The notes under the pieces: model-generated | Seen by the model: the letters and a program-made list of their open reading frames with translations, nothing else | Told to the model about the DNA's origin: nothing | Database searches by the model: none | Program-made: the position numbers and the translations under genes | Part shown: piece by piece, positions 12,922 through 39,458 of the stretch | How positions within the stretch are numbered: position 1 is the first letter of the stretch | Layout: each line of letters opens with the position of its first letter | Assembly (NCBI GenBank): GCA_964412585.1 | Contig: CAYPPJ010000007.1 | Span: 1-47,456 of the forward strand | Length of the DNA stretch: 47,456 nt | Reading direction: 5' to 3' | Source: an uncultured Candidatus Saccharibacteria bacterium | GTDB taxonomy: Bacteria; Patescibacteriota; Minisyncoccia; Phycocordibacterales; PALSA-1337

Positions 12922-12937
12922 CACACATACTATATAT

Positions 12938-15235
12938 ATGACATTCACACCTAAAAAAATACTTATAGCCCTCGGACTTCTCAGTGTATTTGTCGTTGGA
13001 GGCATCCATGGAGTGCGCGCGGCAACTATCAGTAGTACTGTTCCCGGGTCCGTAACTTCAGGTCTTGTCGGCTGGTGGACTATGGATGGTACAGATATGC
13101 TCAATGGAGCAGCCTTGGATAAGAGTGGAAATGGGAATTCTGCGGCACTGGTGAATATTGCGACATCTACTTTCTACAGGGCAGGCAAGATTGGACAAGC
13201 GTTCAATTTTGATGGTGTGAATGATTATCTACTTGTACCAAGTTCTTCCTCTCTTCCTGCTGAACAGCCGATGAGTATTTCAGTCTGGGTTAAGCCTGAT
13301 AATGCCACAGCCGGTTTCGTGCTCGCCTCGCGCCCTTTCTCGGGAAATGGATGGAATATTACGTATGCGTTTGGTAATAGACTCATGTTTCAACATGATG
13401 GCGTTGGAGATTTATCTGCTCGAACAACTTTTAACTTCGGTGCGTTTTCTACTACTCAATGGACACACCTCGTTGTAACATGGGATGGAACTACAGATGC
13501 AACCCATGTTCTCATCTATAAAAATGGCGTCATCCAGGCGCATGATACAGATACAAATGGTTCCAGCATGACGAGTACGAGTGGCCAGCCGCTCTATATT
13601 ACCTCTGACCAAGGTGGTGGCGGTTTTTTCAAAGGATCTATGGATGATTTTCGAATGTATGACCGCGTTCTCTCCACCACAGAAATTAGTCAGATTTACG
13701 CGGCGGGCTTGGCTACTGGCAAGCAGGCTGCTTCACCCCAAGTAACCGGAACTACTTCCTGCTCAACGGGACTATCGTGTGGCCTCGTCGGGTACTGGAC
13801 ATTTGATGGCAAGGATACTCCATGGACATCTGCAACAGCTGCCACTACCCTCGACAAGTCGGGAAGTGGTAACACGGGGACGTTGACCAGTATGAATCAG
13901 TCGAAAGCTCCTGTACAAGGAAAGATTGGCCAAGGACTGAAGTTCGATGGAGTGGACGATACGGTGAGTATTGCTCACAACGCGAGCATCAAACCAACAG
14001 CCGCAATCTCGATTAATTTTTGGTTCAATCCAAGCAATGTAAATTCGTCCGCAGTCCAGACGATTTTGTCCACTACTCAAAGCGGAGGTTATTCGGTGGC
14101 ACTTAATGGAACTTCTGCTTCCGGTACATGCAATGCAAACTCCTTTTGTTTTTTTGTGAATGTTGGCGGTACGTATTATATTACCAATTATGCAAAATCA
14201 AATTTTAAAAATAATACGTGGTATTTATTCACGGGGACATATGATGGAAATACGAATAGGATGTACATAAATGGACAACAGATAGATACTGTTTCCCAAT
14301 CTGGAACAATCAATTATACAAGTAATACGCCAGTATGTTTGGCCTCGGAGCCAAATGCGTCTGCCTGTATAGATGGAAATTACTTCAACGGCTTGATGGA
14401 TGATGTCCGCGTCTACAATCGCGCTCTTTCTGCTGTTGAAGTTAGACAACTTTACAACTTGGGTGCTACTTCCAAGCAGGCTGTTTCACCAGTAGTAACA
14501 TCAACCTCGTGTTCATACGGTCTCTCGTGTGGTCTTCTCGGGTACTGGACCTTCGATGGGAAGGATGTCAATTGGTCAACAGGATTAGCAAGTGACAAGT
14601 CGGGAAATCTCAACACTGGATCGATGCTCAATATGTCGACGACAAGTAGTCCGATACCTGGAAAATCAGGTCAAGGACTGAAGTTTGATGGTGCTAATGA
14701 CGCCATAAATGCAGGGTCAACTTCTTCGTTGACCGATATTCAGAACCAAGGTGGGGGAGGTATGACGGTTGCATTTTGGATAAATCCGGATTCAAATTCG
14801 ACGAAATATATACTTGCAAAAGGAGGTGCAAATAATGGCAGTGGAACATGGTCGATACTCAAGGCCTCAAACACAAATCCCGCACGTCTATCCTTCAATA
14901 AAGAAGGGGGTACAGATGCGTCAAAAAATTATAATAGCTTACTTGTCTCCGGTGTATGGCAGCATATTGTTTTAACATGGGATGGCACGATGGCGGTCAG
15001 TACCGGTGTTCTGGTCTACCGAAATGGTGTTTTGGTATCAAACGTGACAGGGACCGATGGTGCGAGCGCAAATTCTGATTCGGGCAATGCTTTGTGCATG
15101 GGCAATCTTTCTACTATTGGTTCAGCAAATTGTGCTACCTCTGGTTCTGCAGATATGAAGCTCGACGACGTGATGATTTATAACAGAGTATTGAGTGCAG
15201 CTGAGGTTCGTCAATTGTATAATAGAAGCAAATAA
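12938..15235 (+). CDS. Secreted protein with three LamG (concanavalin A-like jelly-roll) domains
   Basis: Signal peptide. Three units GL[VL]G[WY]WT[MF]DG...DKSGNGN...GKIGQ...FDG.[DN]D...W.H.V.TWDG...MDD[FV]R[MV]YNR.LS..E[IV].QLY. Confidence 0.9.
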   Translation: MTFTPKKILIALGLLSVFVVGGIHGVRAATISSTVPGSVTSGLVGWWTMDGTDMLNGAALDKSGNGNSAALVNIATSTFYRAGKIGQAFNFDGVNDYLLVPSSSSLPAEQPMSISVWVKPDNATAGFVLASRPFSGNGWNITYAFGNRLMFQHDGVGDLSARTTFNFGAFSTTQWTHLVVTWDGTTDATHVLIYKNGVIQAHDTDTNGSSMTSTSGQPLYITSDQGGGGFFKGSMDDFRMYDRVLSTTEISQIYAAGLATGKQAASPQVTGTTSCSTGLSCGLVGYWTFDGKDTPWTSATAATTLDKSGSGNTGTLTSMNQSKAPVQGKIGQGLKFDGVDDTVSIAHNASIKPTAAISINFWFNPSNVNSSAVQTILSTTQSGGYSVALNGTSASGTCNANSFCFFVNVGGTYYITNYAKSNFKNNTWYLFTGTYDGNTNRMYINGQQIDTVSQSGTINYTSNTPVCLASEPNASACIDGNYFNGLMDDVRVYNRALSAVEVRQLYNLGATSKQAVSPVVTSTSCSYGLSCGLLGYWTFDGKDVNWSTGLASDKSGNLNTGSMLNMSTTSSPIPGKSGQGLKFDGANDAINAGSTSSLTDIQNQGGGGMTVAFWINPDSNSTKYILAKGGANNGSGTWSILKASNTNPARLSFNKEGGTDASKNYNSLLVSGVWQHIVLTWDGTMAVSTGVLVYRNGVLVSNVTGTDGASANSDSGNALCMGNLSTIGSANCATSGSADMKLDDVMIYNRVLSAAEVRQLYNRSK

Positions 15236-15240
15236 TTTTT

Positions 15241-18200
15241 ATGAAGCAGCATCACCTTAAAACTTCATATGTATATGCCTTGGCGGCGATAGTAGTAATT
15301 GGGCTTGTCGTCAATATACCACATATCATTCAGACGCCTCGTGAAGTTTTGGAAACTGTCGCAACGCACTCTTCGGCAGTCCATCAAACCGCAGCCGTTG
15401 CGGACTTCAACTCAAATCTCGTTCTTCAGTATTCATTCGATGATGGTGCCGCTGCCGATCTATCTGGTCGCGGAAACACAGGTATTGTAGCCGGTGGCGC
15501 AGTATCGAATGTCGGACAGATAGGCAGCGCTCTCGTGTTTGATGGTATCGATGACACGATCAATGCCGGGTCGGCGGCTTCACTCGATGATATTGGGTCA
15601 CAGGGAGGTATGACCGTGTCATTCTGGATCAACCCACGTTCAAACGCACTTGGGTATCTGTTTGCGAAAGGATCAGCGTCGAATAATAGTGGCACATGGT
15701 CAATTCTTAAAAGTTCTGCCACAAGTCCCGCACGCATATCGTTTGGCAAAGAAGGTGCAGCTGATATGAATGCTAATTTTAATAGTGTTCTGGTTGATAA
15801 TGTCTGGCAACACATTGTTCTTACGTGGGATGGAAACATGAGCAGTGGTGTAAATCTGTATAGAAACGGGGTCGCTATGTCAGGTGGAGTTACTGTTGCT
15901 GGTAGTGGAGCGAATAGTGATGCAGCCCACAATCTCATGATCGGTTCGCTCAACGGCACCTCTGGGTTTGCCGATGTCTCCATGGATGACGTACGCGTGT
16001 ATAACCGAGTGCTTACTTCTGCAGAAATAGGGGAGCTTTATTCGTTGGGAGGAAGTGTGGTGTCGCCACCGTCGCCAATCAATGGGTTATGTGGAAGTTC
16101 AGTCAACGCCTGTTCAGCGGGAACTCTTTCGGATTCGACTGACACCGCGACAGAAAACGTGTGGAGCTGTATTGGGTCCATTGGAGGAACCACTGCTTCA
16201 TGCTCGGCTCCGATTTTGTCCCAAGCCACCTCATATAACCTGACTGTTTCCAAGAATGGCACCGGGGCTGGCACGGTTACTGGTTCTGGTATTTCTTGCG
16301 GGACTGATTGTTCGGAATCTGTCGGATCAGGTACGGTTATTACACTCTCGGCCACCGCATCGTCCGGCTCCACATTTACTGGGTGGAGCGGTGGAGGATG
16401 TTCAGGAACTTCTTCGTGTTCCGTAACCATTTCTTCAAATACGGCCGTGACGGCAACATTTAATACGCAAAGCGTAGCGCCAGATCCGGGGCAGCAACCT
16501 TCTCCAGCGGGCAACCGTGTGGATCTGCTGAATAGTTCAGGGGGAGTTGCGAATACGTTCGCGACAATCCAGGCATGTGCCAGTGTGGCACAATCAGGCC
16601 AAACCTGCGCTGTCTACCCAGGAACATACAATGAACGTGTAAATGTGTCGAATTCCGGAACGTCTGCAAGTCCGATCACATTTAGGGCCGCGTCTGCGAC
16701 AAAACCTGTTGTGCGCGCTTTCAGTCTTTCAAACAAAAGTTATATAACTATTGATGGCTTCGAGTTAACACATCGCGCAATGACTCATGAAAGTACGTTA
16801 AATGCCTATGCGAGTGCCTACGTGAGTGGTGGTACCGGTGTTCGTATTACTAACAATTTTATCCACGATACAGACGGTCCGTGCACTAGTTTTGAAAATC
16901 TTTCTTTCCTTACTATTAGCGGCAACACCTTGGACCATTGCGGGGTGGCCACCACAATTATTGGAGTACCGACGGGTGGAACATTCACGATAACTGCTGG
17001 TGTAAATGATACAGTCAAAATTCGTCTTAACAATGCAACGTCATACAATGTCACCCTCACTTCGGGCACGCGCACGTTGCAACAGGTGTGCGCAGATATT
17101 AATAGTCAGGCAAGCGGAGTATATTGTCATGCCGAAGGTGCTGACAAACAGGTTCATATAAATCCAATTACGGTTGGTCCATCAACGTCAGTTATTTTAG
17201 AAAATGTCGCTCACGATGCATATGCGGCGTTGGGACTTGGTGTCGGAAACGAAACCCAGATATCACATACGGCCGCATTTCAATCCGCGAGCGGCGCGGG
17301 ATCAACTGATGTCCTGGTAGAAAATAACCGCGTTTCTCGTGTCAGCGACTTCCTGCTTCCAAAAGGGTCCAGATATGTCTATCGCAATAATATATTAGGT
17401 CCGTCTGATATTGGTACGGCCATCCATATTGATGGCGTACAAAGCAATGCCCCCGAAAACTTCCTTCTTATTGAAAACAATCTATCAACTAATAATTCGA
17501 GCTCAGATAACCATTTCTTTTTGACGTCTGCATATTCAGCCAACTGGATTGTTCGATACAACAGATCGTTCCAAAGCAAAGGGGGGCAGGCGTGGGGGTG
17601 CGGGCCGTGCGGTACCATGGGCAGCTTTTCGCATTACAATAATACGTGGTACGACACTGTCTCGTATTATTTTGGCTGGAATCAGCTCGGATTGACCGCA
17701 TCACCCAACAGTCTTTCCCGTAATAATATCTGGTATCGTGCCGTTCGTAATCCTGGCGGCAATCCATACTATAGTGGCGCGGGGACGGTTTTGGACAAAG
17801 ATTACGACGTGGTCTTCGAATCCGGCAACGCGCAAGAAGTTCATGCGATAACAACTGACCCACTTTTCGTGAATATGTCGTCAGGGGACTTTGCGCTTCA
17901 ATCCTCATCTCCAGCAATTGACCATGGGGGACCATTAACGACCACTGTTACGGCTGGTACCAATTCAACTTCACTCCAGGTCACCAACGCAGGCCCATTC
18001 CAAGATGGTTGGGCAGGAGTCGGTCATGATTGGATCGCTGTGGGCACATCAGGTAATTACAGCGAAATAGGTTCTATTAACTATGCGAATAACACAATCA
18101 CGTTGCGCACACCGTTGTCGTGGTCCGCGGGTGCTCCAGTGTATTTGTTCAAAGATTCGACCGGACGACAAGTGCTCTATGGTCCAGCACCCGATATAGG

Positions 18201-21200
18201 TGCGTATGAGTATGGAGGAGGAGCGCTGGTACTGCCGCCTGCAAATCCAATTCTTCCATCGAACCCACCAGTTCTTCCGGCAAATCCAGTAACATGTACT
18301 TCATTTACGTATTCTGCATGGGGAACATGCACGTCGGGGTCACAAACTAGAAACATTCTTACGAGCAGTCCAAGCGGATGTACGGGAGGAGTTCCTGTTA
18401 CCAGTCAAAGTTGCACGGTTACTCCAATCGTACCACCACCACCTGTACCAGCAATCAATGCTTCATGCTCGAATACACTAAATCAGTGCATTGCCGGAAA
18501 TTACACTGATCTTCCAGATACATCCGCAAATCACGAGTGGTCATGTCTTGGTTCAGGTACAGGGATTAATGTGTCTTGTTCGTTAGCAAAGACGGTAGCA
18601 CCAGCGAATGTAACGGTGCCAGTAGTTCCAAATCAGCCGCCTGTTACATCGCCGAATAGATCAGATTTAACCCCATCACCTCAACCACCAACGGCACCGC
18701 AACGGGTTGTCCAAAAAGTCATTCAGACTACAATAACCCCAAACAAATCACCCTATCGTTCGATTAGCGATGCGGATCTTGATTCTGCAACTTCAACAAA
18801 GCAGTCTATTTCTGATTCTGAACAGCCGCGTTCTCGCAGTTCATTTTTTGAACGAGTTAAGGAGATGTTTCGGTATGTTTATTCACGAATATTGAATGGT
18901 GTAGATCGTCTATTTGGAAATGCTGGCAGAACTCAAACCGCCGCTGTTGCTGACTTCAATTCAAGCCTCGTAGCTCACTACACCTTTGATGATGGAACAG
19001 CGACCGATTCTTCCGGAAAAGGGAATAATGGTTCTTTTGTCGGTTCGCCAACAGCAGCCACTGGTATCATCGGAGGTGCGCTCCAGTTCAATGGTTCAGG
19101 TGACGGAGTCAATGCACCGATTCCGGTTAGTTCTAACGGGATGACCGTCTCAATGTGGGTGAAGACTACGAGCACAAGTCTCCAGACACTCTTCACGCGA
19201 GGTGGGGCGGGTAGTGGATATGCCTTTGATTATCGTTTTGGCAATAGACTCAATTTTGAGCACAATGGCTCAACTGATCTCGCAGCGCGTACAAAATCTT
19301 CAAGTACCCTCACTCCAGGAACATGGTATCATGTCGTGTTTACGTGGGATGGATCAACATCCGCAAGTCACGTTGTATTCTATAACAACGGAGTATCGTT
19401 GCCCCATGATATCGAAAGTGACGGAGTGGCTCTAAGTGATACGGCAGGCTTCACTCCAGTCATTGGCTCTAGTTTTAATGGTGTTATCGACGACGTTCGC
19501 ATCTATAACCGAGCTCTTTCAGCTCAAGAAGTCACCGATCTCTATACTGCTGGCGGAGGATCAGTGCCAGCCTCGCCGCCCGCAGCACCTGCAGGTCAAA
19601 ATAATACTCCTGCGAATACGTCGCCAAACAACACACCAGCAAATCAACCAGCTAACGATACCCCTGCACAGAATGCGGCACCGGCGCAGGCAAATGCCGC
19701 TACCTGTAACACTTCTGACATTCAAACCGCGGTTAATACGGTTGCCGACGGGGGAGTCGTGCTCGTTCCTGCGGGAACCTGCACCTGGACCTCTCCGGTA
19801 ACGATTACGAATAAGTCGATAATACTCAAAGGTGCGGGAATTGATCAGACAATTATTACAGAAAATCTTGCGGTAAGTGATAGTTCGCTCCATATCAATA
19901 GCGCTCTTGGTAGGCCTGTTCGGGTAACAGGATTTACCTTCGAAGGAAGAAATACTCGTGACAATTATGCTTCGATTGGCATCTCTGGTCCGCCCAATCA
20001 ACCGTTGTTCCGTGTTGATCACATCAAGTTCAACAACGTCACAGAACGAGGCATTATCGCCAATGGCGTATACGGTCTCATCGATCATAATATTTTTATA
20101 AGAAATCCGACAGAAGGTTCGCCGACGCTTGTCTCGGTGATGGGTGACTCTGATGCTTCGTGGAATCGACCGCAAGACATGGGTACGTCAAACGCGGTAT
20201 TTATAGAGGATAATATTTTTGTCCATAATATAAATGCCAATGGCCCGTTCGATATGTATCGAGGCGCACGCTATGTGTTTCGAAATAATAATGTGTATGG
20301 TAACAATTTGGGCCATCATGGCTTCGATAGTGATCTTCGTGGAGAAGTAAATTTTGAAGTTTATAATAATTGCTTCGTGAATGCAGCACCCGCAGAGCGT
20401 ACGCCGTACGTTCTCCATCCCTATAGCGATTGTTCGGTCCATCCACTTCCTGCCACAACTCCTTATGCCCACGGTGTTGTCTTCGAATTCCGTTCAGGAT
20501 CGGGGGTGATCTTTAATAATACGGTGACTCGAGTCCCGACAGGGAATAATGGAGGCTATTATGATTACTTTACGCTACTCAGAAACTATCGCAGTGGAGA
20601 CGGGTATATTACCAACAATGGAGGCGTCTTTCCGTGGGATGGACATAGCCCGTGGAACGGCTCGTGCAATGGGACAAATCCGCTCGATGGTAATCTACTC
20701 GACCTCGATACCAATGGTGATGGTGTTGCTGACAAGAGTTCGGGCTATCCATGCAAGGATCAAATTGGTCGTACATCGGGTGTTGGTGCAGACGGAAAAC
20801 AGACCCTGTCTCCCGTGTATTCATGGAATAATAATTTTCAAGGAGCCGTGGGAGGACATATCGTGACGGGTGGTTACGCAACATTCCAATGTCCAAAAGT
20901 TGGCAGTACTTTTGTCTCAAAGGTTGATAAGCCCGCTCCTGGCGCTCCATATACGTGGGTGTGCAAAAATAATGCATCGGGCGTGGATTATACATTGTCT
21001 GATCTGGTCAACTACCACATCAAAGAAGGCCGCGATTATTTTAATGGAGTTGCTCGTCCTGGATATTCTCCGTATGTATATCCTCACCCGCTTACCGTCA
21101 GTGGATTTTTATCGGATGCAGGCGGTCCGGTAATCACGGTGCCGGTAGGGAATGCTGCTCCTTCTGTGGCGGTGCCCGTAACGCCTCCGACTATCGCTCC

Positions 21201-24200
21201 CGCTACTCCGGTTGTGCCCCCAGCGACGCCTGTGGTGACACCTCCAGTAACTCCACCTGTTACTCCAAATCCAATCGTTCCAAACCAACCTCCTGTCACG
21301 CCGCCAATTTCTCCTACTGTACAAAATACTATTCCACCAGTTCAGGTGACAACGAATACTCCGAACGTGGTAACTCGTACTCCGACAGTAGTGAGGAATG
21401 GTAATGTAAATACCGTAAAAAAGTCACCATACCGTTCGTTAAGCGATGCTGATATTGATACTGCAACGTCGTCTACCCAAGAGACCACATCTACTCCTGA
21501 GACTTCATTCTTTGGACGGATAAAAGAAATATTCCACTACGTTTACTCTCGCATCCTCAATGGTGTCGATCGTATATTTGGCTACGTAGGAACTACTCAA
21601 ACTGCAGCTGTTGCAGATTTCGATTCAAATCTCGTTGCCTACTATTCCTTTGATGATGGCACAGCTACAGACAATTCAGGCCATGGAAATGGGGGGACCA
21701 TCACCGGAGCCACGCCCGTCGCGGGAAAAGTTGGGGGAGCATTATCATTCTCGACGGGAAGTTCAGTATCAATCGGTAAAAAACTTTTTACTTCATATCC
21801 AGCCACTCTGTGCGCGTGGGTCAAAGTGGAATTGAAAGGGAATGGTCAGTCGTCAAAAATTATTGGTAATAGCGGACTTGATCTAGTTGCGCTCGAAAGT
21901 GATGGTCAGGAAAGATTTGTTGTATACAACGGATTAAAAGATATTTTTACACCGTATTCGAGTAGATATTCAGCCGGAGAGTGGCATCATGTGTGTGGTA
22001 TGGCCGATGCGGGGGCCCAGGTGAATATATACGTCGACGGTGTGCTCGCGGTTGGTCCGTCAACTATTGGTATTGCAAGCACATACTGGAATGCGGTTGT
22101 GGGCAGTAATTTTTCAGGAATTATAGATGAGGTGCGCGTTTATAATTCGACGTTGAGCGCAAGTCAAGTTGCTGATGTCTATAATTTTTCTGGCGGCGGA
22201 AGTTCGAGTGGTACAGGAAGTGGTACTGGCACAGGAACTGGAACAGGTACAGGCACGGGAACAGACGCCGGGACTGGTACCGGAACAGGGGCGGGAAATC
22301 CACCGGCTGCCCCTGTAGTTGCAGGATCATGTTCCGCAACACTCAATACATGTATGGTGGGCACGTTCGCGGATGTGGCTGATACATCAACTGAGCAGAA
22401 GTGGTCCTGCGTCGGTTCGGGCGGAGGCACGACTGCATCATGTTCGATTCCGGTACCCGTTGTGATACCTGATCCCGTTATTCCAACGCCAGATCCGCTC
22501 CCAAATCAGCCGATTTCAAGCGAGCTCATCCCATCTGATCGTCTCTATGATTGGGCAAATAACGTAGGGGTCATGGGAGGTATTCCTGTTGGTCGTTCGG
22601 TCTGTGCGAGCGTCAAAGATGCGCCGTACAATGCGGTGGGCGATGGTGTTGCTGATGACACGTTGGCAATCGTTGCAGCCATTCGCGCTTGCGCGGGCAA
22701 AAGTCAGGCGGTCTATTTTCCTGCGGGGACGTACAAGTTTACCGATAAAATAATTGATCAGGGCACGGGTAGAACATCAGCCAACTTTACCTACAGCAAT
22801 ACTACATTCCGCGGAGCGGGAATGGGTAAAACGATATTGAAGCTCAACACAAACAATCCTATTTATGTAGGTAACGGAGATTGGCCACCACCAGAACCAA
22901 CAGTGTATGTAACAGGTGGAGCGATGCGTGGCAGCTACTCACTCACCGTTGATGATGCAAGCAGTATTGCAGTAGGAAAACTCATCACCATCACACAACT
23001 CAATCCGGATTGGGTTCATTCGAATAGTCGATTCTACGGAGGAGGCCCTGTCGACGATGGACACGAGAAGAATCGTCTCATGGCTATTACCGTGCTCGTA
23101 AAAAGTAAGTCGGGCAGCACGATTACTATCGACCATCCATTGCCGATAGACATGCCAAACTCACCGATGATCACGGTGTGGACCAATATCGTGAAGGGAA
23201 CAGGATTTGAGGATATGACACTCGATATGTCATCAAGTGGTGCGCAGTCAGGCATCTTGTTCAATCAAGTATATGGGTGCTGGGTGAAGGGTGTTGAAAT
23301 AAAAAAAGCAGTCAATCGTTTCTTATGGTTTACCACAGTCTCGAATTGTGAAGTGCGCGATTCATATTTCCATGATGCTACCGTTACCAAAAAAGAAGGT
23401 GTGGATTTTTATCAAAATGACACCTTCAATCTGATTGAAAATAATATTTTGGTGCGCGCGGGTGGTCCGATGATTATTCTCGGTGACTTTGGCGGAGGAG
23501 TTTCTATGAATGTAGTCGCCTACAATTATCTTGAGGATCAGGAAGGCTGGAGCGATGTGGTGCCGTATGCACTTTCTGACAACCACGGTGCGCACAATAT
23601 GTTCAATCTGTTTGAAGGTAACGTTGCACAAAATATTTCTTCAGACGGCTACTATGGCGGCGCGTCGCATGAGACATTGTTCCGCAATAGATTTACCAGT
23701 GTCTATGGCAAAGCTCCCAATCGCAATTATGATTATCTGTGGCAGTACGCTATTCACTTGGGTCACTGGGCCGTTAATTACAATGTAGTAGGTAATGTGC
23801 TGGGCTCACCTGGTTATGCGTCGGTGTATCAACCATCAACGCTCAATTATGCAGGCGAGATCAAGGCAATTTACCGTCTGGGTTTTCCAGATTGTTGTAA
23901 CTCGGGCTTTTCAGGTACCGGTTCAAATCCAACAAATAGTTTGACCTTCGATACAAATGTTGAGGCAACATTGATTCGTCATGGAAATTTTGACTACCTG
24001 AGCAACACCACAAAATGGAGTCCGAACATTTCCGTCCGCTCACTGCCAGCATCATTGTATCTGCGCGGTCAGCCATCATGGTGGAATACGTGGGGGGCAA
24101 CAGCATTCCCACCGATAGGTCCTGATGTATCTGGGTATGCGCAAGAGCTCCCAGCTAAGCTACGTTATCGTGCGATACAGCGGGGAAATGACGTTGCACC

Positions 24201-24894
24201 TCCAGTAAATCAGCCAGCCCATCAACCTTTGATATGCAGTACGTTTACCTACTCCGCATGGGGAACATGCACGGCTGGCACGCAATCGCGCTCAGTTCTG
24301 ACCAGTGGTCCTTTTGCATGTACAGGTGGTCAGCCGGTCACTTCGCAAAGTTGTACGGATGTGCCAGTGGTTCCACCGGTCAATGCACGCTGCTCAACAG
24401 TGGTCGACCGATGTTCCACTGGCATCTATACGGACATGAATGATTCAACGTTACTTACCATATGGTCATGTCGTGGTTCCAACGGCGGGGAAAGTGTCTC
24501 ATGTTCATTGCCAAAGGTAGATCCTACAATTGACGTAGCCCCCGCAAACCTTCCCGCACCTCAGGTGATTCAAAAGCCATTGGTAGTGACTCCGCCATTG
24601 TTGGCGCCTGTTGCTGAGAGGATTATTTCTAACATAAGCCAGACGGAGCAAGGTATATCAACACGTCTGAGTTCGTACGGTCAAAATACTGTCCAGGCGC
24701 TCAGGAATAAATCCCCGTATCGACTTATTACTGATAGTGATTTGGCGACATCGTCAGAATCTGACGATGCCTCAGCGCTCAACGTATCGCAATGGAAAGG
24801 GGCGATGACCTTCTCTGAGCGAGTATCCGAGGTTTTGAGCTATATTGTTCAACGTATTTTAAATGGAGTGGCCAAGGTAAAGGGTTATTTCTAG
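15241..24894 (+). CDS. Giant (3217 aa) surface protein of three tandem modules (LamG + right-handed beta-helix, polysaccharide lyase/hydrolase-like + Cys-rich and Pro-rich linkers + amphipathic tail)
   Basis: N-terminal TM; three LamG units; AVYPGTYNE...DPLFVN...PDIGAYEY; DIQTAVNTVADGGVVLVPAGTC; AVGDGVADDTLAI...VYFPAGTY (Pectate_lyase_3-like); InlB-B/Flg_new-like unit YNLTVSKNGTGAGTV...FTGWSGGGCSG. Confidence 0.88.
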   Translation: MKQHHLKTSYVYALAAIVVIGLVVNIPHIIQTPREVLETVATHSSAVHQTAAVADFNSNLVLQYSFDDGAAADLSGRGNTGIVAGGAVSNVGQIGSALVFDGIDDTINAGSAASLDDIGSQGGMTVSFWINPRSNALGYLFAKGSASNNSGTWSILKSSATSPARISFGKEGAADMNANFNSVLVDNVWQHIVLTWDGNMSSGVNLYRNGVAMSGGVTVAGSGANSDAAHNLMIGSLNGTSGFADVSMDDVRVYNRVLTSAEIGELYSLGGSVVSPPSPINGLCGSSVNACSAGTLSDSTDTATENVWSCIGSIGGTTASCSAPILSQATSYNLTVSKNGTGAGTVTGSGISCGTDCSESVGSGTVITLSATASSGSTFTGWSGGGCSGTSSCSVTISSNTAVTATFNTQSVAPDPGQQPSPAGNRVDLLNSSGGVANTFATIQACASVAQSGQTCAVYPGTYNERVNVSNSGTSASPITFRAASATKPVVRAFSLSNKSYITIDGFELTHRAMTHESTLNAYASAYVSGGTGVRITNNFIHDTDGPCTSFENLSFLTISGNTLDHCGVATTIIGVPTGGTFTITAGVNDTVKIRLNNATSYNVTLTSGTRTLQQVCADINSQASGVYCHAEGADKQVHINPITVGPSTSVILENVAHDAYAALGLGVGNETQISHTAAFQSASGAGSTDVLVENNRVSRVSDFLLPKGSRYVYRNNILGPSDIGTAIHIDGVQSNAPENFLLIENNLSTNNSSSDNHFFLTSAYSANWIVRYNRSFQSKGGQAWGCGPCGTMGSFSHYNNTWYDTVSYYFGWNQLGLTASPNSLSRNNIWYRAVRNPGGNPYYSGAGTVLDKDYDVVFESGNAQEVHAITTDPLFVNMSSGDFALQSSSPAIDHGGPLTTTVTAGTNSTSLQVTNAGPFQDGWAGVGHDWIAVGTSGNYSEIGSINYANNTITLRTPLSWSAGAPVYLFKDSTGRQVLYGPAPDIGAYEYGGGALVLPPANPILPSNPPVLPANPVTCTSFTYSAWGTCTSGSQTRNILTSSPSGCTGGVPVTSQSCTVTPIVPPPPVPAINASCSNTLNQCIAGNYTDLPDTSANHEWSCLGSGTGINVSCSLAKTVAPANVTVPVVPNQPPVTSPNRSDLTPSPQPPTAPQRVVQKVIQTTITPNKSPYRSISDADLDSATSTKQSISDSEQPRSRSSFFERVKEMFRYVYSRILNGVDRLFGNAGRTQTAAVADFNSSLVAHYTFDDGTATDSSGKGNNGSFVGSPTAATGIIGGALQFNGSGDGVNAPIPVSSNGMTVSMWVKTTSTSLQTLFTRGGAGSGYAFDYRFGNRLNFEHNGSTDLAARTKSSSTLTPGTWYHVVFTWDGSTSASHVVFYNNGVSLPHDIESDGVALSDTAGFTPVIGSSFNGVIDDVRIYNRALSAQEVTDLYTAGGGSVPASPPAAPAGQNNTPANTSPNNTPANQPANDTPAQNAAPAQANAATCNTSDIQTAVNTVADGGVVLVPAGTCTWTSPVTITNKSIILKGAGIDQTIITENLAVSDSSLHINSALGRPVRVTGFTFEGRNTRDNYASIGISGPPNQPLFRVDHIKFNNVTERGIIANGVYGLIDHNIFIRNPTEGSPTLVSVMGDSDASWNRPQDMGTSNAVFIEDNIFVHNINANGPFDMYRGARYVFRNNNVYGNNLGHHGFDSDLRGEVNFEVYNNCFVNAAPAERTPYVLHPYSDCSVHPLPATTPYAHGVVFEFRSGSGVIFNNTVTRVPTGNNGGYYDYFTLLRNYRSGDGYITNNGGVFPWDGHSPWNGSCNGTNPLDGNLLDLDTNGDGVADKSSGYPCKDQIGRTSGVGADGKQTLSPVYSWNNNFQGAVGGHIVTGGYATFQCPKVGSTFVSKVDKPAPGAPYTWVCKNNASGVDYTLSDLVNYHIKEGRDYFNGVARPGYSPYVYPHPLTVSGFLSDAGGPVITVPVGNAAPSVAVPVTPPTIAPATPVVPPATPVVTPPVTPPVTPNPIVPNQPPVTPPISPTVQNTIPPVQVTTNTPNVVTRTPTVVRNGNVNTVKKSPYRSLSDADIDTATSSTQETTSTPETSFFGRIKEIFHYVYSRILNGVDRIFGYVGTTQTAAVADFDSNLVAYYSFDDGTATDNSGHGNGGTITGATPVAGKVGGALSFSTGSSVSIGKKLFTSYPATLCAWVKVELKGNGQSSKIIGNSGLDLVALESDGQERFVVYNGLKDIFTPYSSRYSAGEWHHVCGMADAGAQVNIYVDGVLAVGPSTIGIASTYWNAVVGSNFSGIIDEVRVYNSTLSASQVADVYNFSGGGSSSGTGSGTGTGTGTGTGTGTDAGTGTGTGAGNPPAAPVVAGSCSATLNTCMVGTFADVADTSTEQKWSCVGSGGGTTASCSIPVPVVIPDPVIPTPDPLPNQPISSELIPSDRLYDWANNVGVMGGIPVGRSVCASVKDAPYNAVGDGVADDTLAIVAAIRACAGKSQAVYFPAGTYKFTDKIIDQGTGRTSANFTYSNTTFRGAGMGKTILKLNTNNPIYVGNGDWPPPEPTVYVTGGAMRGSYSLTVDDASSIAVGKLITITQLNPDWVHSNSRFYGGGPVDDGHEKNRLMAITVLVKSKSGSTITIDHPLPIDMPNSPMITVWTNIVKGTGFEDMTLDMSSSGAQSGILFNQVYGCWVKGVEIKKAVNRFLWFTTVSNCEVRDSYFHDATVTKKEGVDFYQNDTFNLIENNILVRAGGPMIILGDFGGGVSMNVVAYNYLEDQEGWSDVVPYALSDNHGAHNMFNLFEGNVAQNISSDGYYGGASHETLFRNRFTSVYGKAPNRNYDYLWQYAIHLGHWAVNYNVVGNVLGSPGYASVYQPSTLNYAGEIKAIYRLGFPDCCNSGFSGTGSNPTNSLTFDTNVEATLIRHGNFDYLSNTTKWSPNISVRSLPASLYLRGQPSWWNTWGATAFPPIGPDVSGYAQELPAKLRYRAIQRGNDVAPPVNQPAHQPLICSTFTYSAWGTCTAGTQSRSVLTSGPFACTGGQPVTSQSCTDVPVVPPVNARCSTVVDRCSTGIYTDMNDSTLLTIWSCRGSNGGESVSCSLPKVDPTIDVAPANLPAPQVIQKPLVVTPPLLAPVAERIISNISQTEQGISTRLSSYGQNTVQALRNKSPYRLITDSDLATSSESDDASALNVSQWKGAMTFSERVSEVLSYIVQRILNGVAKVKGYF

Positions 24895-24978: not shown

Positions 24979-25998
24979 ATGGACCCCATAGCACCAGCTA
25001 CCCAGACGCCGGCTCCTCAGACACCGGTTTCTACCCCTGTACCTCAGATTAGCCCAGCGGGTTCGTTTGATGGGCCAGTAGCGTTGACCAAGTTCGCATG
25101 GAAGATGTTTACCAAGAACTGGAAGACGTTGGGACTTATTATGCTTGTACCGATAGTATTGTATGTAGCAGGGATGCTCCTTATGATTACAAAATCTTCA
25201 GCAGGCTCAGTTATTGGATTTATACTGATCATCGCTGAGTACGTATTTTTTATCGCAGCGATTCCTGCGTCTATTCAAGCAGTACATCGATTGACTGTTG
25301 AACCGAATACTCCCGTGTCAGTGAAATCTCAGTATAAATTTGGATTTAGTGTATTTTGGTCGTTCATTCTCCTGATGATTATTATGGGTGCGGTGAATAT
25401 GGGATCGTCAGTATTGTTTGTTATTCCGGGGATTGTGGTCATGGTTTATGCTGTGTTTAGTTATTACACGCTGACTATCGATGGTAAGAGAAACTTCGCC
25501 GCACTTACCGAAAGCTTCTCATTGATCCGTGGCCGTTGGTGGAAAGTATTTGGCCGACTCTTGTTCTCGTGTCTTATCGGTCTTGTGGTCTATATCGTTG
25601 CCGTACTCATTGCCCCTGTCCTCTCACTGTTACCTGAAGTGTTGGCGATTATTCTTGGTGTTATTCTCGCGCTGGCCGTTGCAGTGTTTGGTTGGACCTT
25701 TGGCATTGCGTACTTCTATCGCCTTTATGTTTCCCTCAAAGAATCACGTTCTGCAAATGTTCCTACGGGGACATTCAAGGGTTGGCTTATCGCCTTTCTC
25801 TGTATTGGTGTTATTTCACCTCTCATATTGATCCCTATTATGTCAGCGGTTGTTCTCACATCGTTGAACTCAGCCCGTATGAAGGGACTTGAGGCTCAAC
25901 AGAATGCTCAGGGTCGCATGGCCGAAATCCAACGAATGATTGATGCCGAGAACCTAAAGTCAATGCAGCAGGGAACGTCTGTACCAGTTCAACACTAA
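24979..25998 (+). CDS. Multi-pass membrane protein with C-terminal type IV pilin-like helix
   Basis: About 7 hydrophobic segments; SFSLIRGRWWKVFGRLL motif; C-terminal SAVVLTSLNSARMK. Confidence 0.7.
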   Translation: MDPIAPATQTPAPQTPVSTPVPQISPAGSFDGPVALTKFAWKMFTKNWKTLGLIMLVPIVLYVAGMLLMITKSSAGSVIGFILIIAEYVFFIAAIPASIQAVHRLTVEPNTPVSVKSQYKFGFSVFWSFILLMIIMGAVNMGSSVLFVIPGIVVMVYAVFSYYTLTIDGKRNFAALTESFSLIRGRWWKVFGRLLFSCLIGLVVYIVAVLIAPVLSLLPEVLAIILGVILALAVAVFGWTFGIAYFYRLYVSLKESRSANVPTGTFKGWLIAFLCIGVISPLILIPIMSAVVLTSLNSARMKGLEAQQNAQGRMAEIQRMIDAENLKSMQQGTSVPVQH

Positions 25999-26007
25999 TC
26001 ATTACAT

Positions 26008-26859
26008 ATGAAGTTTTTTTCTCACTTCAAGCATTCAGTGTATAGTCCTTCCTTCTATCATGACAGGAAGGTTGCTCCATTGGGACACGCGTTTGGCTAT
26101 TTCTTCATACTGATCTTGTGTACGAGTGTGATCGCGACGATAGTCTTCATGCTCCTCGGTGTGCCGAAGCTGCAAAAGTATACCTCTCCCGAGTTCGTCT
26201 CGCAGGTTGTCAGTTATTTTCCAGCAGAGTTAACAGTTACCTTGAAGGGTGGACAGGCCTCGACGAATGTGAGTGAACCTTACGCTATCCCTATACCAGC
26301 GACGCTCTTTTCTGAATTACAGATGAAACCTGCCGGCTCGCGTGTGGAGAATTTCATTGTCATTGATACGACGCACCCGTTTGTCCTTACTGATTTTGCA
26401 TCCTACAAGACCGCACTATTACTCACCAAGGATTTCATAGTGGTCGAGGATCGAAATGGTAAGATAACAGTCAATCCACTCAAATCGTTCCCTGATGCCG
26501 TCATAGATCAAACTCTGGTGCTCAACTTGATGAACAAGGCAGTACCGTATATCAAGACGTTGATGCCACTCATGATCCCGATCGTGCTTGTTGGTTCATA
26601 CATTGGATACGTCATCGGTTATTTATTCCTTCTCCTGATTTCTTCGTTGATTGTCTGGATCGTCTATATGATTCAAAAGAAGGGGATTAGCTATGGCACC
26701 TGTTACAAACTTGGACTCTATGCGGTGACTCTACCGATCATTATTGACCTCATTCTGTCAGCTACTTCTATTGGTTCGAGTCCGTGGTATGTCACTCTTA
26801 TACTCATACTCATTGTCATGCTCGCTAACATCCGCGATGCGGAACCAGCCCATATATAA
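26008..26859 (+). CDS. DUF1189-like membrane protein
   Basis: F.HSVYSP.FY...GHAFGYFFILIL N-terminus, extracellular middle, three C-terminal TMs with YKLGLYAVTLP. Confidence 0.65.
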   Translation: MKFFSHFKHSVYSPSFYHDRKVAPLGHAFGYFFILILCTSVIATIVFMLLGVPKLQKYTSPEFVSQVVSYFPAELTVTLKGGQASTNVSEPYAIPIPATLFSELQMKPAGSRVENFIVIDTTHPFVLTDFASYKTALLLTKDFIVVEDRNGKITVNPLKSFPDAVIDQTLVLNLMNKAVPYIKTLMPLMIPIVLVGSYIGYVIGYLFLLLISSLIVWIVYMIQKKGISYGTCYKLGLYAVTLPIIIDLILSATSIGSSPWYVTLILILIVMLANIRDAEPAHI

Positions 26860-26861
26860 TC

Positions 26862-27617
26862 ATGTCTTCCTGGTCACAGCGCCGAAAATCAGTCTATGCA
26901 GTTGTCATCTTCATCATTGTGGTGGGTGTGATTGGCGTTCCTGGATTTTATTTATTTTATCAAGCGCCAACATGTACCGATAGGGTCATGAACGGAAATG
27001 AGCAGGGAGTTGATTGTGGCGGTTCATGTCAGCGACTCTGTCAAACATCATTTCTCCAGCCATCATTGGCATGGACGCGTTTTGAACAGGTAGCACCAGG
27101 TCTCTACAATCTTGCGGCTTATATCGTGAACCCAAATATCGAGGCTGAGGCGTTGAATGTACCATATCATCTTGCGCTGTATGATGATCGTGGCGTGTTG
27201 ATTACCGACACTACGGGCCGCGTGACGTTGCCACCCCATCGCAACACCATCGCCTTCCAAGGGGCGGTCAATGTGGGCAAACGTGTTCCTTCCAAGGCAC
27301 TTTTTGAATTTACCGCGGCCCCAGATTGGCACAAAAAGAAAGATGTGCTCGCGGCAATCGCTGTTGGTGACAAAAAATATGCCGAAGACTCTCTCGGCTC
27401 GTCTTTGATCGTCACCCTCAAAAATACGAGCGTGTATCCGATCGTCAATGTGGGCGTCTACACGGTCTTATACGACAAGGACAACAATGCTCTCGGATTT
27501 TCCAAGACATTTGTAGATGAAATACCGCCAAAGGGAAGCGCCCTCGCACCTTTTACATGGCCAGTTGATAGGAAAGGAGCTGTTATCTCCATCGAAGTTC
27601 TCCCGGTCTCTGAATAG
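26862..27617 (+). CDS. Membrane-anchored conserved hypothetical protein with PTC.D...NGNE.GVDCGGSC..C Cys motif and FxLYD-like C-terminal domain
   Basis: N-terminal TM, Cys motif, VYTVLYDKDNNALG segment. Confidence 0.7.
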   Translation: MSSWSQRRKSVYAVVIFIIVVGVIGVPGFYLFYQAPTCTDRVMNGNEQGVDCGGSCQRLCQTSFLQPSLAWTRFEQVAPGLYNLAAYIVNPNIEAEALNVPYHLALYDDRGVLITDTTGRVTLPPHRNTIAFQGAVNVGKRVPSKALFEFTAAPDWHKKKDVLAAIAVGDKKYAEDSLGSSLIVTLKNTSVYPIVNVGVYTVLYDKDNNALGFSKTFVDEIPPKGSALAPFTWPVDRKGAVISIEVLPVSE

Positions 27618-27646
27618 GTGTATACTACCCGCACCTCCACTATTGT

Positions 27647-28810
27647 ATGAATTCATTGCCTCCACAATCGAGTTCTTCATATCGCCTGGGAAGTAATCTC
27701 CGTCGACGCATGGATTGGTGGCTTTTTGGCGCGACAATCCCTATTCTTGCTGCAGGATTGATGACCATGTACTCGTTTACCGGAAATAACACCTTTGCCA
27801 GTCACCAGTTTATTTGGATCATCGTCGCAATCGCACTCTTTTTTACCGTTAGTTTTATTGATGTCCGTTTTTTGCGATCAACATGGGTCTCGGTGCTCGC
27901 GTTTAGTGTATCCGCACTGTTACTGGCGGGCCTGTTTGTGTTCGGTACGGTAACCAATGGTTCGCGCTCATGGTTTGACTTGGGTAGTTTCTCATTTCAA
28001 CCATCTGACTTTGCCAAGCTGGCAATCATGGTTATTTTGGCAAAGTATTTTTCGCGCAGGCATATTGAGATCGCGAATATCAGACACATACTCGTCTCAG
28101 GAACATACGCATTTATTTTGTTTGCACTCGTACTCGGTAGTCCCGATCTTGGTTCGGCCATGATTATATTTTTTATCTGGCTGGGCATGGTCACCGTCTC
28201 AGGCATTTCAAAGAAGCATTTGTTCGCTATGCTCGGCATTGGGCTCGTTGTCTTTGGTTTGCTGTGGGGGTTTGGGTTTAAAGAATATCAAAAAGACCGC
28301 ATCAGAAATTTCATCGATCCCTTGGCGGATATTCACGGTGCGGGGTACAACGCATATCAGTCGACCGTAGCGGTTGGTTCAGGACAATTTTGGGGCAAGG
28401 GATTGGGATATGGCACGCAATCTCGTCTCAAATTCCTTCCGGAGTATCAGACAGACTTTATTTTTGCGGCATTTTCTGAAGAGTGGGGTTTTGCGGGGGT
28501 TGTTATTTTGTTCACGCTGTACGGCATTATCATTTGGCGAATTGTCAAAAACTCGCTCAACGGAGCCACCAATTTCGAGATACTGTTTGGCGCTGGAGTA
28601 GCAGTATTTTTCATCGTACATATTGTGATCAATGTGGGTATGAATATGCACCTATTGCCGGTGACGGGAACGCCGCTGCCGTTCATGAGTTATGGTGGTA
28701 CGCACGTTCTGACAGAATTTCTTGCGCTCGGGGTCGTCGTGGCGATGCGACGCTACTCTCGTCCGGCGCACAAAGATGCAGTGAAAAATGAATTTATCGG
28801 ACCACAGTAG
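27647..28810 (+). CDS. rodA: SEDS peptidoglycan glycosyltransferase RodA
   Basis: GSRSWFDLGSFSFQPSDFAKL, PDLGSA, GYNAYQS..AVGSG..WGKG.G.G.Q, PEYQTDFIF...EEWGF, PVTG.PLPFMSYGG. Confidence 0.92.
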   Translation: MNSLPPQSSSSYRLGSNLRRRMDWWLFGATIPILAAGLMTMYSFTGNNTFASHQFIWIIVAIALFFTVSFIDVRFLRSTWVSVLAFSVSALLLAGLFVFGTVTNGSRSWFDLGSFSFQPSDFAKLAIMVILAKYFSRRHIEIANIRHILVSGTYAFILFALVLGSPDLGSAMIIFFIWLGMVTVSGISKKHLFAMLGIGLVVFGLLWGFGFKEYQKDRIRNFIDPLADIHGAGYNAYQSTVAVGSGQFWGKGLGYGTQSRLKFLPEYQTDFIFAAFSEEWGFAGVVILFTLYGIIIWRIVKNSLNGATNFEILFGAGVAVFFIVHIVINVGMNMHLLPVTGTPLPFMSYGGTHVLTEFLALGVVVAMRRYSRPAHKDAVKNEFIGPQ

Positions 28811-28889
28811 TGTTGGGGGCGGCATCTGAGTGCACACTGCTCCGAACTCTCTTCACAGTCCCGCCGGATTGAATGTAAGTTGGTCGCTT

Positions 28890-30029
28890 TTACTTATGTA
28901 CCGCGTACACTTCTGCAACGTCATCTAACATTTTTTCAAGTGAGAATTGTTTTGAAACGCGCTCTTTGAGAGCGGTGCCACTCTTTTTGCGTTCTTCAGG
29001 ATGTTCGATCATAAATGAGAGGGCGTGAGCAAGTTCGCGGATATTCTTTGGCTGAACTAATACACCTGATTTCATATCTTCAATAATCTCAGGAATGCCG
29101 CCAACGGTCGTGGCAATGACTGGTAATGAGGCATGTCCCGCTTCAAGAATGGTGTAGGGGAGACCTTCTTTGAGTGATGGGAGCACAAATATAGTGAATG
29201 CTTTCAAATATTCCGCGGCGTGATCCATGTAGCCAGCAAGAAAGACGTATTGCTCGAGTTTCTTTTCTTTGATGAGTGCTTGGAGGTTGTCTTTTTCTTG
29301 ACCATCACTGATGATGACCGAAATGGCTTGAGGGTATTGTTCAATCACTGAGGTCATCGCATTGATGAGATACGACAACCCTTTGTTTGGATGAAGTTCG
29401 GCGATAGTGCCGATGACAATTTTTTTGTTAAATTCAGGAATCGGCATGCCGATATGTTTTGCGATAGACTGCTTTGCGCCGTCTACTGATATGAATGTTG
29501 GGGATTTGATGCCGAGCGGGATGAGACGAAGCTTTTCTTTTATCCAAGGAAAGTTGAGTGTTTGAGCGTATTCGCGTTCTGACAAAAGTATTGTGGTGTG
29601 ACAGAGCATCATGGTGATCCATGAGAAGAATATAATCGCAAGACGTTGATGAATAGGCCTGCTCTCGTTGAATGTCCAGCCGTGGACGGTATATATAATG
29701 GATTTGACGCCAAGAATTCTTCCCGCGAGCGCGCCAAGACCAGCAGCTTTTGGACTGTGGACGTGAAGGATGTCGGGGCGACGGTGGCGAATGACGGAGA
29801 TGATTTCTTTGAGTGAGCCAGCGTCTTTGCCAATAGCAATATCGCGACCCATAGCCGCAATCGAATGAGTATAGATGCCGGCTGCCTCAAGACGGGTGCG
29901 CAAGGTGCCATTTCCCCCAAGCGCTACCGCGACTTCGTGCCCTCGATCCTTCATGGAGACCGCAAGATCAAATACGTGCCTTTGGGCACCACCCCAATTT
30001 GATTTGGTTATGAGATAGAGTATCTTCAT
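28890..30029 (-). CDS. GT4 family glycosyltransferase (start ATG 30029; the track's upstream extension is unlikely)
   Basis: MKILYLITKSNWGGAQRHV, PDILHVHS, FVLPSLKEGLPYTILEAG, VIATTVGGIPEII. Confidence 0.92.
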   Translation of the reverse strand: MKILYLITKSNWGGAQRHVFDLAVSMKDRGHEVAVALGGNGTLRTRLEAAGIYTHSIAAMGRDIAIGKDAGSLKEIISVIRHRRPDILHVHSPKAAGLGALAGRILGVKSIIYTVHGWTFNESRPIHQRLAIIFFSWITMMLCHTTILLSEREYAQTLNFPWIKEKLRLIPLGIKSPTFISVDGAKQSIAKHIGMPIPEFNKKIVIGTIAELHPNKGLSYLINAMTSVIEQYPQAISVIISDGQEKDNLQALIKEKKLEQYVFLAGYMDHAAEYLKAFTIFVLPSLKEGLPYTILEAGHASLPVIATTVGGIPEIIEDMKSGVLVQPKNIRELAHALSFMIEHPEERKKSGTALKERVSKQFSLEKMLDDVAEVYAVHK

Positions 30030-30107
30030 CACGTATACGCTAGCAAAAATAAGGCTTTTCGGCAAACGCTCTTGATACAACCATAAAATCATGGTAAGGT
30101 GTTGCCT

Positions 30108-31466: not shown

Positions 31467-31510
31467 TTGGGCTATATTCGCTTCGCTCATAGAGCGTCGG
31501 CGTTCGGATG

Positions 31511-31536
31511 TTGTAAATGCGAAAAGGCATTTACAA
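31511..31536. terminator. Perfect 10-bp inverted repeat between sugar transferase and secD
   Basis: ttgtaaatgc-gaaaag-gcatttacaa; function (terminator or operator) not determinable. Confidence 0.45.
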
Positions 31537-31566
31537 ATCCTCACTTCTAGCTATAATACCCCCCAT

Positions 31567-33051: not shown

Positions 33052-33060
33052 TATACATAT

Positions 33061-33954: not shown

Positions 33955-33959
33955 TTTCT

Positions 33960-36916: not shown

Positions 36917-37036
36917 GGTTTGCTATAATCCTGATACAAGAAATTCCCCTCCGCACAACTCAATAATTATGTCCCAAATTGCAACTATTTTTTAGGGAAA
37001 TGGCTAGATTAGCAATGCCTCGTAATTTAATATACT

Positions 37037-37906: not shown

Positions 37907-37911
37907 CTATC

Positions 37912-38529: not shown

Positions 38530-38636
38530 GAGGATCTTGATAAATCAACAAATTGCCTCCCGGCATTTGTATAAATATTTTGTCAGGAAGGACATCTGGG
38601 CTATTGCTTTTTTAACTTTCATGATATAATTACGTG

Positions 38637-39070: not shown

Positions 39071-39222
39071 CATTGGTAATTATAACCCATGAGTTCACTA
39101 TCCTATATTTTTTCTGTGTATAACGCAAGTCAGCTTCCATCCAAGGGAGTTTTTACTGGGTTGTCATTTGTTAATAAAGTTGTATAGTTAAATTGCAATT
39201 AAGTAATTTTAATATAAATAAT

Positions 39223-39456: not shown

Positions 39457-39458
39457 AG

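Follow-up and report, generated by a model that had tools for sequence, protein, structure and literature searches.

Does the 3217-amino-acid (aa) protein encoded by a patescibacterial contig act as one giant surface enzyme, or is it the precursor of three? The gene in question is a single uninterrupted open reading frame (ORF), at positions 15241-24894 of the + strand in a 47,456-nt stretch of DNA from an uncultured, ultra-small bacterium (assembly GCA_964412585.1, contig CAYPPJ010000007.1). We refer to this whole stretch as the window, and all features given below lie on its + strand. A first-pass annotation, made from the letters alone, had described three ancestral genes fused in frame with conserved junctions. 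We find that the protein may be a rare bacterial surface polyprotein. It begins with a signal anchor and an 18-aa linker (15241-15384), and the hydrophobic helix of this anchor (aa 12-30, nt 15274-15330) is the sole stretch of transmembrane strength in the chain (Kyte-Doolittle 2.23). Behind it lie three cassettes built in the same order: the motif QTAAVADF, a LamG domain, small Cys domains (in cassettes 1 and 3 only), a payload that differs from cassette to cassette, a Pro-rich linker and a tail. Homologous scaffolds around unrelated payloads had been claimed earlier, and the comparisons bear this out. The heads and tails of the cassettes are alike (LamG, 31-36% identity; tails, 32-44%), whereas the payloads aligned to one another by hhalign with a probability below 2%, sharing only a beta-helix cap-like motif at their N-termini.

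The motif stands at aa 49, 1232 and 2120, that is, nt 15385, 18934 and 21598. Copy 1 (QTAAVADFNS, 15385-15414) follows the signal anchor and contains a proposed processing site, A-V-A|D-F. Copy 2 (QTAAVADFNS, 18934-18963) lies at junction 1 and copy 3 (QTAAVADFDS, 21598-21627) at junction 2. The tails carry KSPYR at aa 1169, 2061 and 3157 (nt 18745, 21421 and 24709) and RILNGV at aa 1216, 2104 and 3205, the third tail stopping seven residues ahead of the stop codon. The nucleotide positions are exactly those reported before. A sequence spanning a junction reads ..GRTQTAAVADFNSS... Synonymous codons for the invariant residues of motif and tail differ among all three copies; the A-A-V-A stretch, for example, is encoded by GCA GCC GTT GCG, GCC GCT GTT GCT and GCA GCT GTT GCA. 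This rules out gene conversion or a recent repeat, and indicates that the repeat has been kept by selection on the protein.

Conservation is sharply focused on the motif. Relative L017 encodes an orthologue in which all ten motif residues are conserved (100%) at both junctions, where the LamG domains are 38-73% identical and the five residues preceding the motif are 0-20% identical (0% at junction 1). Over all 10 copies at hand, the consensus is Q-T-[A/E]-A-V-[A/G/S]-D-F. Position -3 relative to the proposed site is Ala, and position -1, before D-F, is A, G or S, in 10/10 copies. Type I signal-peptidase sites are preceded by small residues at these positions (the -3/-1 rule of von Heijne), and A-V-[A/G/S]|D-F fits this rule, as judged from the sequence. 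The motif also occurs in stand-alone proteins. In P0006, P0035 and P0038, which share the N-terminal anchor layout of the window protein, it is found 10-24 residues past the membrane helix; P0035 and P0038, both truncated, consist of a membrane helix, 12-20 residues, QTAAVSDF[SN]S and then a LamG domain. Thus, there is good support for the motif as the mark of where the mature protein begins behind an N-terminal signal anchor. No Pfam or NCBIfam model matched either the motif or the tail. A further motif-like string, QVAPVATF in an adaptor protein of relative L016, aligns with the first strand of a cohesin domain and was set aside as a chance resemblance.

The tail has three parts: a box, K-S-P-Y-R-x-[IL]-[ST]-D-x-D; a spacer of 15-30 residues rich in Ser, Thr and acidic residues; and a helix, [ST]-F-x-x-R-[VI]-x-[ED]-[VIM]-x-x-Y-[VI]-x-x-R-I-L-N-G-V. 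Tail 1 (18742-18933) runs from KSPYRSISDADLD through the Ser/Thr/acid spacer to the amphipathic helix (nt 18841-18918) and a 5-aa spacer, NAGRT. Tail 2 (21418-21597) comprises KKSPYRSLSDADID, the spacer, the amphipathic helix and then YVGTT. Tail 3 (24706-24894) is the true C-terminus (...RILNGVAKVKGYF) with the stop codon. When a profile of the tail was run against all six-frame ORFs of the window, only these three copies were recovered, with domain E values of 1e-47, 6e-44 and 3e-29; the next-best match had an E value of 0.86. AlphaFold2 (AF2) models the helix of tail 1 at aa 1202-1224, with a predicted local distance difference test (pLDDT) score of about 79. That this helix is amphipathic had been proposed earlier, and the calculation agrees. 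Across the window and its relatives, the hydrophobic moment over 18 residues is 0.56-0.81, compared to means of 0.34-0.50 for shuffled sequences (P about 0.01 for most), and the helix is also cationic, with a net charge of +1 to +6. Its hydrophobic positions are spaced by 3-4 residues, and the core Y-[IV]-x-x-R-I-x-N-G is invariant across paralogues and species.

The productive route to relatives ran through protein homologues of the downstream membrane protein, used as a synteny anchor, followed by contig look-ups; a synteny scan with the neighbouring gene gave only nzgw447 among genomes and none among metagenomes. In L017, whose anchor protein is 51% identical to that of the window, the orthologue has 3998 aa and four cassettes. 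Three of them correspond, in unchanged order, to window cassettes 1, 2 and 3 (67%, 51% and 75% identity), and the fourth is only 27% identical to window cassette 2. All three internal junctions consist of a tail followed by QTAAVADF, and the C-terminus is again a tail. The concatenation is old, predating the split from the L017 lineage. At the other extreme is P0006, a protein of 106 aa from nzgw447, a metagenome-assembled genome of Ca. Taylorbacteria. It consists of a membrane helix, a linker, QTEAVGDFNSSMIARYT, SPY and the helix (...RIMNGVRKITVVFW), an 'empty frame' without a cassette. Its locus is syntenic with the window gene: P0006 sits between the 23S-5S ribosomal RNA (rRNA) genes and the run of genes that follows the window gene. 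The run shared by window and nzgw447 comprises a DUF7847-like protein (68% identical), DUF1189, a 251-aa protein, FtsW, GT4, a sugar transferase and SecDF. Hence, 0, 3 and 4 cassettes are found at the same locus among related species. Other relatives have an rRNA operon directly ahead of the anchor gene and no tail gene, which identifies the locus as a variable surface-protein site.

In further relatives, the tail closes stand-alone proteins. The upstream gene in L012/L014 (anchor 57% identical) ends in an fn3-like domain, a Pro-rich linker and the tail. In L015, L016 and L020-22 (anchor 44-57% identical), the tail ends a protein of 246-280 aa made up of a signal peptide, a cohesin domain and a linker. 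The signal peptide of these cohesin proteins is of the ordinary cleavable kind (..ASA|ATLS..). Adjoining the tail-bearing cohesin gene are genes for a cohesin+fn3+dockerin adaptor and for a stand-alone orthologue of cassette 1, 39-50% identical to it. In L016 (3-2477), this orthologue starts with TAAVADFNSS at the contig edge, continues with LamG, four-Cys and beta-helix 1 domains, and ends in a Dockerin_1 domain without a tail. The compact cohesin-dockerin set, in which the adaptor has an N-terminal membrane helix, was seen at L015 1956-4744, L016 2540-5336 and L020 4818-7560, and our literature search found no paper on such a set or such a tail in Patescibacteria.

In all of these stand-alone relatives (the cohesin proteins, the fn3-type proteins and P0006), the tail is the true C-terminus, and we consider it well supported that secreted proteins carry the tail as a lineage-specific module at their C-terminus. 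Because, in the cohesin-dockerin genomes, only the protein that would have to tether the complex bears a tail, anchoring to the cell surface is the simplest reading of its role. The earlier description of each internal junction as a C-terminal tail joined to a mature N-terminus agrees with these observations: the tail ends stand-alone relatives, and the motif follows N-terminal anchors. The idea that three ancestral genes were fused fared less evenly. It is supported for cassette 1, whose single-module orthologue carries the motif and a dockerin end, and not for cassettes 2 and 3, since no stand-alone version of either with both ends was found in the relatives. As an alternative to gene fusion, the frame could have been duplicated in tandem and the payloads swapped afterwards.

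The reading we favour, to which we would give a little less than an even chance, is that the gene encodes a Sec-exported polyprotein cut at its junctions into three separately anchored enzymes. On this reading, a wastewater Patescibacterium akin to Ca. Taylorbacteria would use the protein as a multi-enzyme precursor for its cell surface. A-V-[A/G/S]|D-F within the motif would serve as a type I signal-peptidase site, and cuts at the N-terminal site and at both junctions would release three enzymes, each held on the surface by its own tail, either in the plane of the membrane or docked on a conserved receptor. The direct fusion of tails and the concatenation of cassettes would in this lineage have replaced the dockerin/cohesin display of its relatives. 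Two lines of reasoning point this way. First, the cassette-1 orthologue starts with the motif and carries a dockerin, so the N-terminal anchor was presumably removed near the motif; docking would be needless if the N-terminal helix stayed attached. Second, a chain that stayed whole would be anchored by its N-terminal helix alone, and separation is the most economical explanation for a tail on each cassette. Signal peptidase is known to cleave after an in-plane amphipathic helix that ends in A-x-A and lacks an h-region, at the pestivirus Erns-E1 site (PMC8310223). By analogy, the tail helix with the following ..QTAAVA may act as a pseudo-signal peptide. More specifically, and only tentatively, we propose that the tail of ~60 residues together with ..QTAAVA|DF could constitute an undescribed, reiterable internal pseudo-signal peptide cut by ordinary signal peptidase.

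Several points weigh against cleavage, which we infer purely from sequence features. The candidate site is 18-24 residues past the N-terminal helix, far beyond a normal c-region, and 12-19 residues past the tail helices rather than at the helix end. Many sequences satisfy the -3/-1 rule yet stay uncut. Q-T (-6, -5) and D-F (+1, +2) are invariant as well, and signal peptidase does not need them; thus, a dedicated protease or a binding role is equally compatible with the motif. An invariant R-I-x-N-G is uncommon in generic lipid-binding helices, which suggests a specific partner. Finally, no stand-alone cassette with both motif and tail was recovered among the relatives, a distribution that is poorly known, as databases seem to miss very long proteins.

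The main rival is that the chain is never cut. In this case, the N-terminal helix would anchor a giant multi-enzyme, the internal tails would pin its cassettes flat to the membrane or wall, and the motif would be a hinge or recognition element. We regard this as a serious possibility, if not a probable one. Multi-catalytic surface enzymes that remain uncleaved are common, the ORF is continuous in all assemblies, and amphipathic internal tails can bind lipid without a free end. The geometry of the candidate site, atypical for signal peptidase, points the same way. What an uncleaved chain leaves unexplained is the presence of the motif behind the N-terminal signal anchors of unrelated single proteins and ahead of a dockerin-bearing enzyme, as well as the limitation of position -1 to A, G and S. 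Moreover, the tails would be redundant with the N-terminal anchor.

A second alternative, compatible with either a cut or an uncut chain, concerns the tail itself, which could be a docking or oligomerization module rather than a lipid anchor, its helix binding a conserved surface receptor or bundling cassettes or chains through coiled coils. The degree of conservation of Y-[IV]-x-x-R-I-x-N-G is unusual for lipid-binding helices, and the 3-4 spacing of hydrophobic positions would suit such a module. Tail and dockerin interchange at the same position of the cassette-1 enzyme among relatives, and tail-bearing genes are located just upstream of a conserved cluster of membrane-protein genes. However, that cluster is also present in relatives without a tail gene (L024-L029), no partner for the tail was identified, and its cationic amphipathic character suits membrane binding. 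On balance, we think docking rather unlikely. A specific link between the tail and the downstream DUF7847 and DUF1189 proteins is likewise weakened, as relatives keep those genes after the rRNA operon with no tail gene.

Known C-terminal modules do not account for the tail. We found no match to Peptidase_S74, the phage tailspike chaperone, on the tails at E values up to 10, and, unlike sorting signals of the LPXTG/sortase, PEP-CTERM and GlyGly-CTERM type, the tail contains no transmembrane segment. With no NCBIfam or Pfam match, a curated C-terminal sorting signal and Peptidase_S74 were both ruled out. Pattern scans for the tail in GTDB genomes, Joint Genome Institute (JGI) metagenome contigs and viral contigs gave no match. 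A word-indexed protein search with the tail profile returned only a fragment of the window protein, and an exhaustive search of representatives returned self-fragments, P0006 and three spurious repeat proteins. One caveat here is that very long proteins seem to escape the protein databases: neither the 3217-aa nor the 3998-aa protein came up, neither has a Pfam record, and one protein search listed only matches of <400 aa. The absence of tail matches is therefore weak evidence.

A third alternative would make the motif a mere structural extension at the N-terminus of one LamG subfamily, with a tandemly duplicated frame and no role in processing or sorting. The first LamG strand, NS.L[VI]..Y.FD, always directly follows the motif, and tandem duplication of the mature region would automatically yield junctions of tail and then motif. 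Against this, P0006 has the motif without any LamG domain, the LamG domains of another ORF in the window (12938-15235) lack it, and its complete conservation far exceeds that of the LamG domains. In addition, the AF2 model keeps the motif out of the sandwich. In this model of tail 1, junction 1 and LamG 2, the segment FGNAGRTQTA is a coil of low confidence, and the first LamG strand does not start until past D-F-N-S. The motif, lying in coil outside the sandwich, is therefore predicted to be a linear element. These data make the structural explanation improbable.

That three adjacent genes were joined by an assembly or frameshift error is virtually inconceivable: although short contigs break within the gene (L008 at nt 22329, L023/X5 at nt 19694), the ORF is uninterrupted in at least 6 independent assemblies (L006, L007, X6-X8, X1), the L017 orthologue from another species has the same in-frame junctions, and no start codon, ribosome-binding site or signal peptide is common to both junctions. 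The JGI contigs L006 and L007 are 99.7% identical along the entire gene, and no differences to it were seen in three contigs of 22-24 kb from metatranscriptome runs X6-X8 or in a 36-kb DNA contig from run X1. Internal translation starts were also ruled out. Only one Met is found close to a junction (KEMF, in tail 1); AAGGAG directly abuts its ATG, and it is missing at junction 2.

Some variation in the gene was observed in these data. A JGI contig (L023 3851-4073) and metatranscriptome run X5 track the gene exactly to nt 19694, in the linker past LamG 2. Both then pass into one and the same sequence, unrelated to the gene (CAGTGCATGCAAAGTTGCAAACATGTATTAA...), that introduces a stop codon. Either a minority structural variant in the population or an insertion could explain this. 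In L008 (1-3615), unrelated genes (AAA/clamp-loader-like and others) are joined at nt 22329, within the Gly-Thr repeat of cassette 3, leaving an 846-aa 'single cassette'. The join reflects either a chimeric assembly at the simple repeat or a real rearrangement. Run X14, from activated sludge, represents a strain about 96-97% identical, with three deletions of 4 nt each, which together (12 nt) keep the frame, at window positions 21259-21273, in the Pro-rich linker preceding tail 2; its contig over junction 1 shows no differences. Linkers are free to vary, and junctions are not.

We then consider what the favoured polyprotein would deliver. All three LamG heads (Laminin_G_3, Pfam PF13385) score 68-89 bits, well above the gathering cut-off of 27.6. 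They occupy 15415-16065 (E 1e-21), 18964-19575 (E 4e-25) and 21628-22215 (E 9e-19). The AF2 model of LamG 2 has a pLDDT above 90, and its best Foldseek matches in the PDB, domain 4 of the arabinanase AbnA and the lectin-like half (Hc-N) of clostridial toxin Hc, are jelly rolls that bind carbohydrate. In cassette 1, LamG is followed at 16087-16467 by a four-Cys domain (aa 283-325, Cys read from the sequence) and an InlB B-repeat-like Flg_new_2 domain (aa 335-409; PF18998, 32.9 bits). Payload 1, a putative right-handed beta-helix, spans 16513-18240. It matches Pfam Beta_helix at 19 bits, below the cut-off of 25.9, and its orthologue in L016 matches at 29-32 bits, above it. A TSP1-like Cys domain and a second four-Cys domain come next (18268-18576), as read from the sequence, and resemble their equivalent in cassette 3. 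In cassette 2, the payload at 19696-21120 appears to be an all-beta domain with a beta-helix-like N-terminal cap motif. It has no Pfam family or PDB sequence match, and its single-sequence AF2 model is unreliable (pLDDT 43.5). Cassette 3 has a Gly-Thr repeat linker and a four-Cys domain (22216-22500, read from the sequence), payload 3, a pectate-lyase-like beta-helix (22501-24210; PF12708, 47-48 bits versus a cut-off of 27), and a TSP1-like Cys domain plus four-Cys domain (24238-24540). Profile matches of payload 3 in the PDB include 7chu, annotated 'putative pectin lyase' (E 5e-7), and 3zpp. PDB sequence matches of the payloads are weak and cover only the N-terminal cap, and no close characterized homologue was found. 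The suggestion that these are glycan-active enzymes is thus consistent with the beta-helix Pfam matches of cassette 3 and, via the orthologue, of cassette 1, and does not extend to cassette 2, which is without a family.

The gene is flanked by genes for a secreted and a membrane protein. Upstream, a secreted protein with three LamG domains (12938-15235; Pfam, three stretches, E 4e-74) ends 5 nt before the start of the 3217-aa gene. Downstream is the DUF7847-like multi-pass membrane protein that served as the synteny anchor (24979-25998). A second giant ORF, of 3353 aa (2860-12921), contains LVIVD repeats (Pfam E 7e-56) as well as long repeats rich in Gly, Ser and Thr. Towards the C-terminus comes a different amphipathic helix (SFLERIFNTFMEFLKSAIARIKSIF), then ..EKLCVDDVCINKDQLKALL and a Pro-rich end; this ORF is not matched by the tail profile. 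Further along, positions 37000-40100 form an island of low GC content (0.35-0.41, compared to about 0.47 elsewhere), with an N6/N4 DNA methylase gene (37037-37906) and two ORFs without a family, closely preceded by a RhuM-family ORF and a Clp_N ORF. The island has the look of a restriction-modification or mobile segment that was acquired. In several relatives, the locus is directly downstream of the 23S-5S rRNA genes (L004 1-990, L025 4402-10000, L026 1-1400). The 3' part of the 23S gene in L004 is about 260 nt longer than the model positions matched, and L025 has LAGLIDADG ORFs in a stretch without called genes, presumed to be the rRNA region. These features suggest rRNA insertions or introns.

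Among the known systems closest to this one is cellulosome-type display, which likewise places several lectin or enzyme units on one cell surface. Relatives share exactly its layout at the same locus, with a dockerin-bearing enzyme, a cohesin+fn3+dockerin adaptor and a tail-bearing cohesin protein. Cohesin and dockerin domains occur only in relatives L015, L016 and L020-22, and neither Cohesin nor Dockerin_1 matched the 3217-aa protein or the scanned window ORFs (2860-15235, 24979-34898 and ten others). In contrast to a cellulosome, the units of the window protein are covalently joined in one frame, each with its own anchor tail, and that anchor is a helix-ended tail of ~60 residues instead of an SLH domain or sortase signal. 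The pestivirus Erns-E1 boundary has a similar order, with an amphipathic anchor helix, a small-x-small site and then the next protein, and no h-region (PMC8310223, PMC3937272). It belongs, however, to a viral polyprotein in the eukaryotic endoplasmic reticulum and has no sequence relationship to the window protein. There, A-x-A ends the helix and cleavage is proven; here, the site lies 12-19 residues beyond and cleavage is a prediction.

A short amphipathic helix at the C-terminus holds E. coli PBP5 and PBP6 at the outer face of the cytoplasmic membrane, and anchor helices of this type are poorly conserved and occur once per protein. The window tail differs in its invariant RIxNG core, its upstream KSPYR..SDxD box and its internal reiteration. 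Staphylococcal Atl (amidase and glucosaminidase) and SlpA of C. difficile each give rise to several surface-retained polypeptides from one exported precursor, by means of dedicated proteases and wall-binding repeats; neither is known to have a reiterated identical junction motif or an amphipathic tail on every unit. Giant extracellular proteins of the Omnitrophota, ultra-small bacteria, contain lectin/CBM (carbohydrate-binding module)-like and dockerin-type domains, and whether they are cleaved is an open question (bioRxiv 10.1101/2023.11.21.568195). They are 10-25 times longer than the window protein, have numerous transmembrane segments, contain C39/S8 peptidase domains of their own and lack a defined junction motif, whereas the window protein has explicit candidate cut sites. 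Overall, the window system resembles cellulosome-style display, and possibly viral envelope polyprotein processing, but belongs to neither.

Patescibacteria are thought to live attached to other cells, and almost none of their huge surface proteins has been characterized; whether these act whole or cut is an open question. In the present case, short and explicit motifs, conserved among paralogues as well as between species, define the anchor and the candidate cut sites, which makes the question directly testable. One small clade shows the switch between non-covalent cohesin-dockerin assembly and covalent concatenation with an anchor for each unit. If the proposed internal pseudo-signal peptide is real, it would parallel, in bacteria, the processing of viral envelope polyproteins and be an evolutionary alternative to cohesin-dockerin display, in which cassettes are shuffled in and out. 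The tail and the motif may also help to search the surface proteome of this lineage, and might even be of use as display tags.

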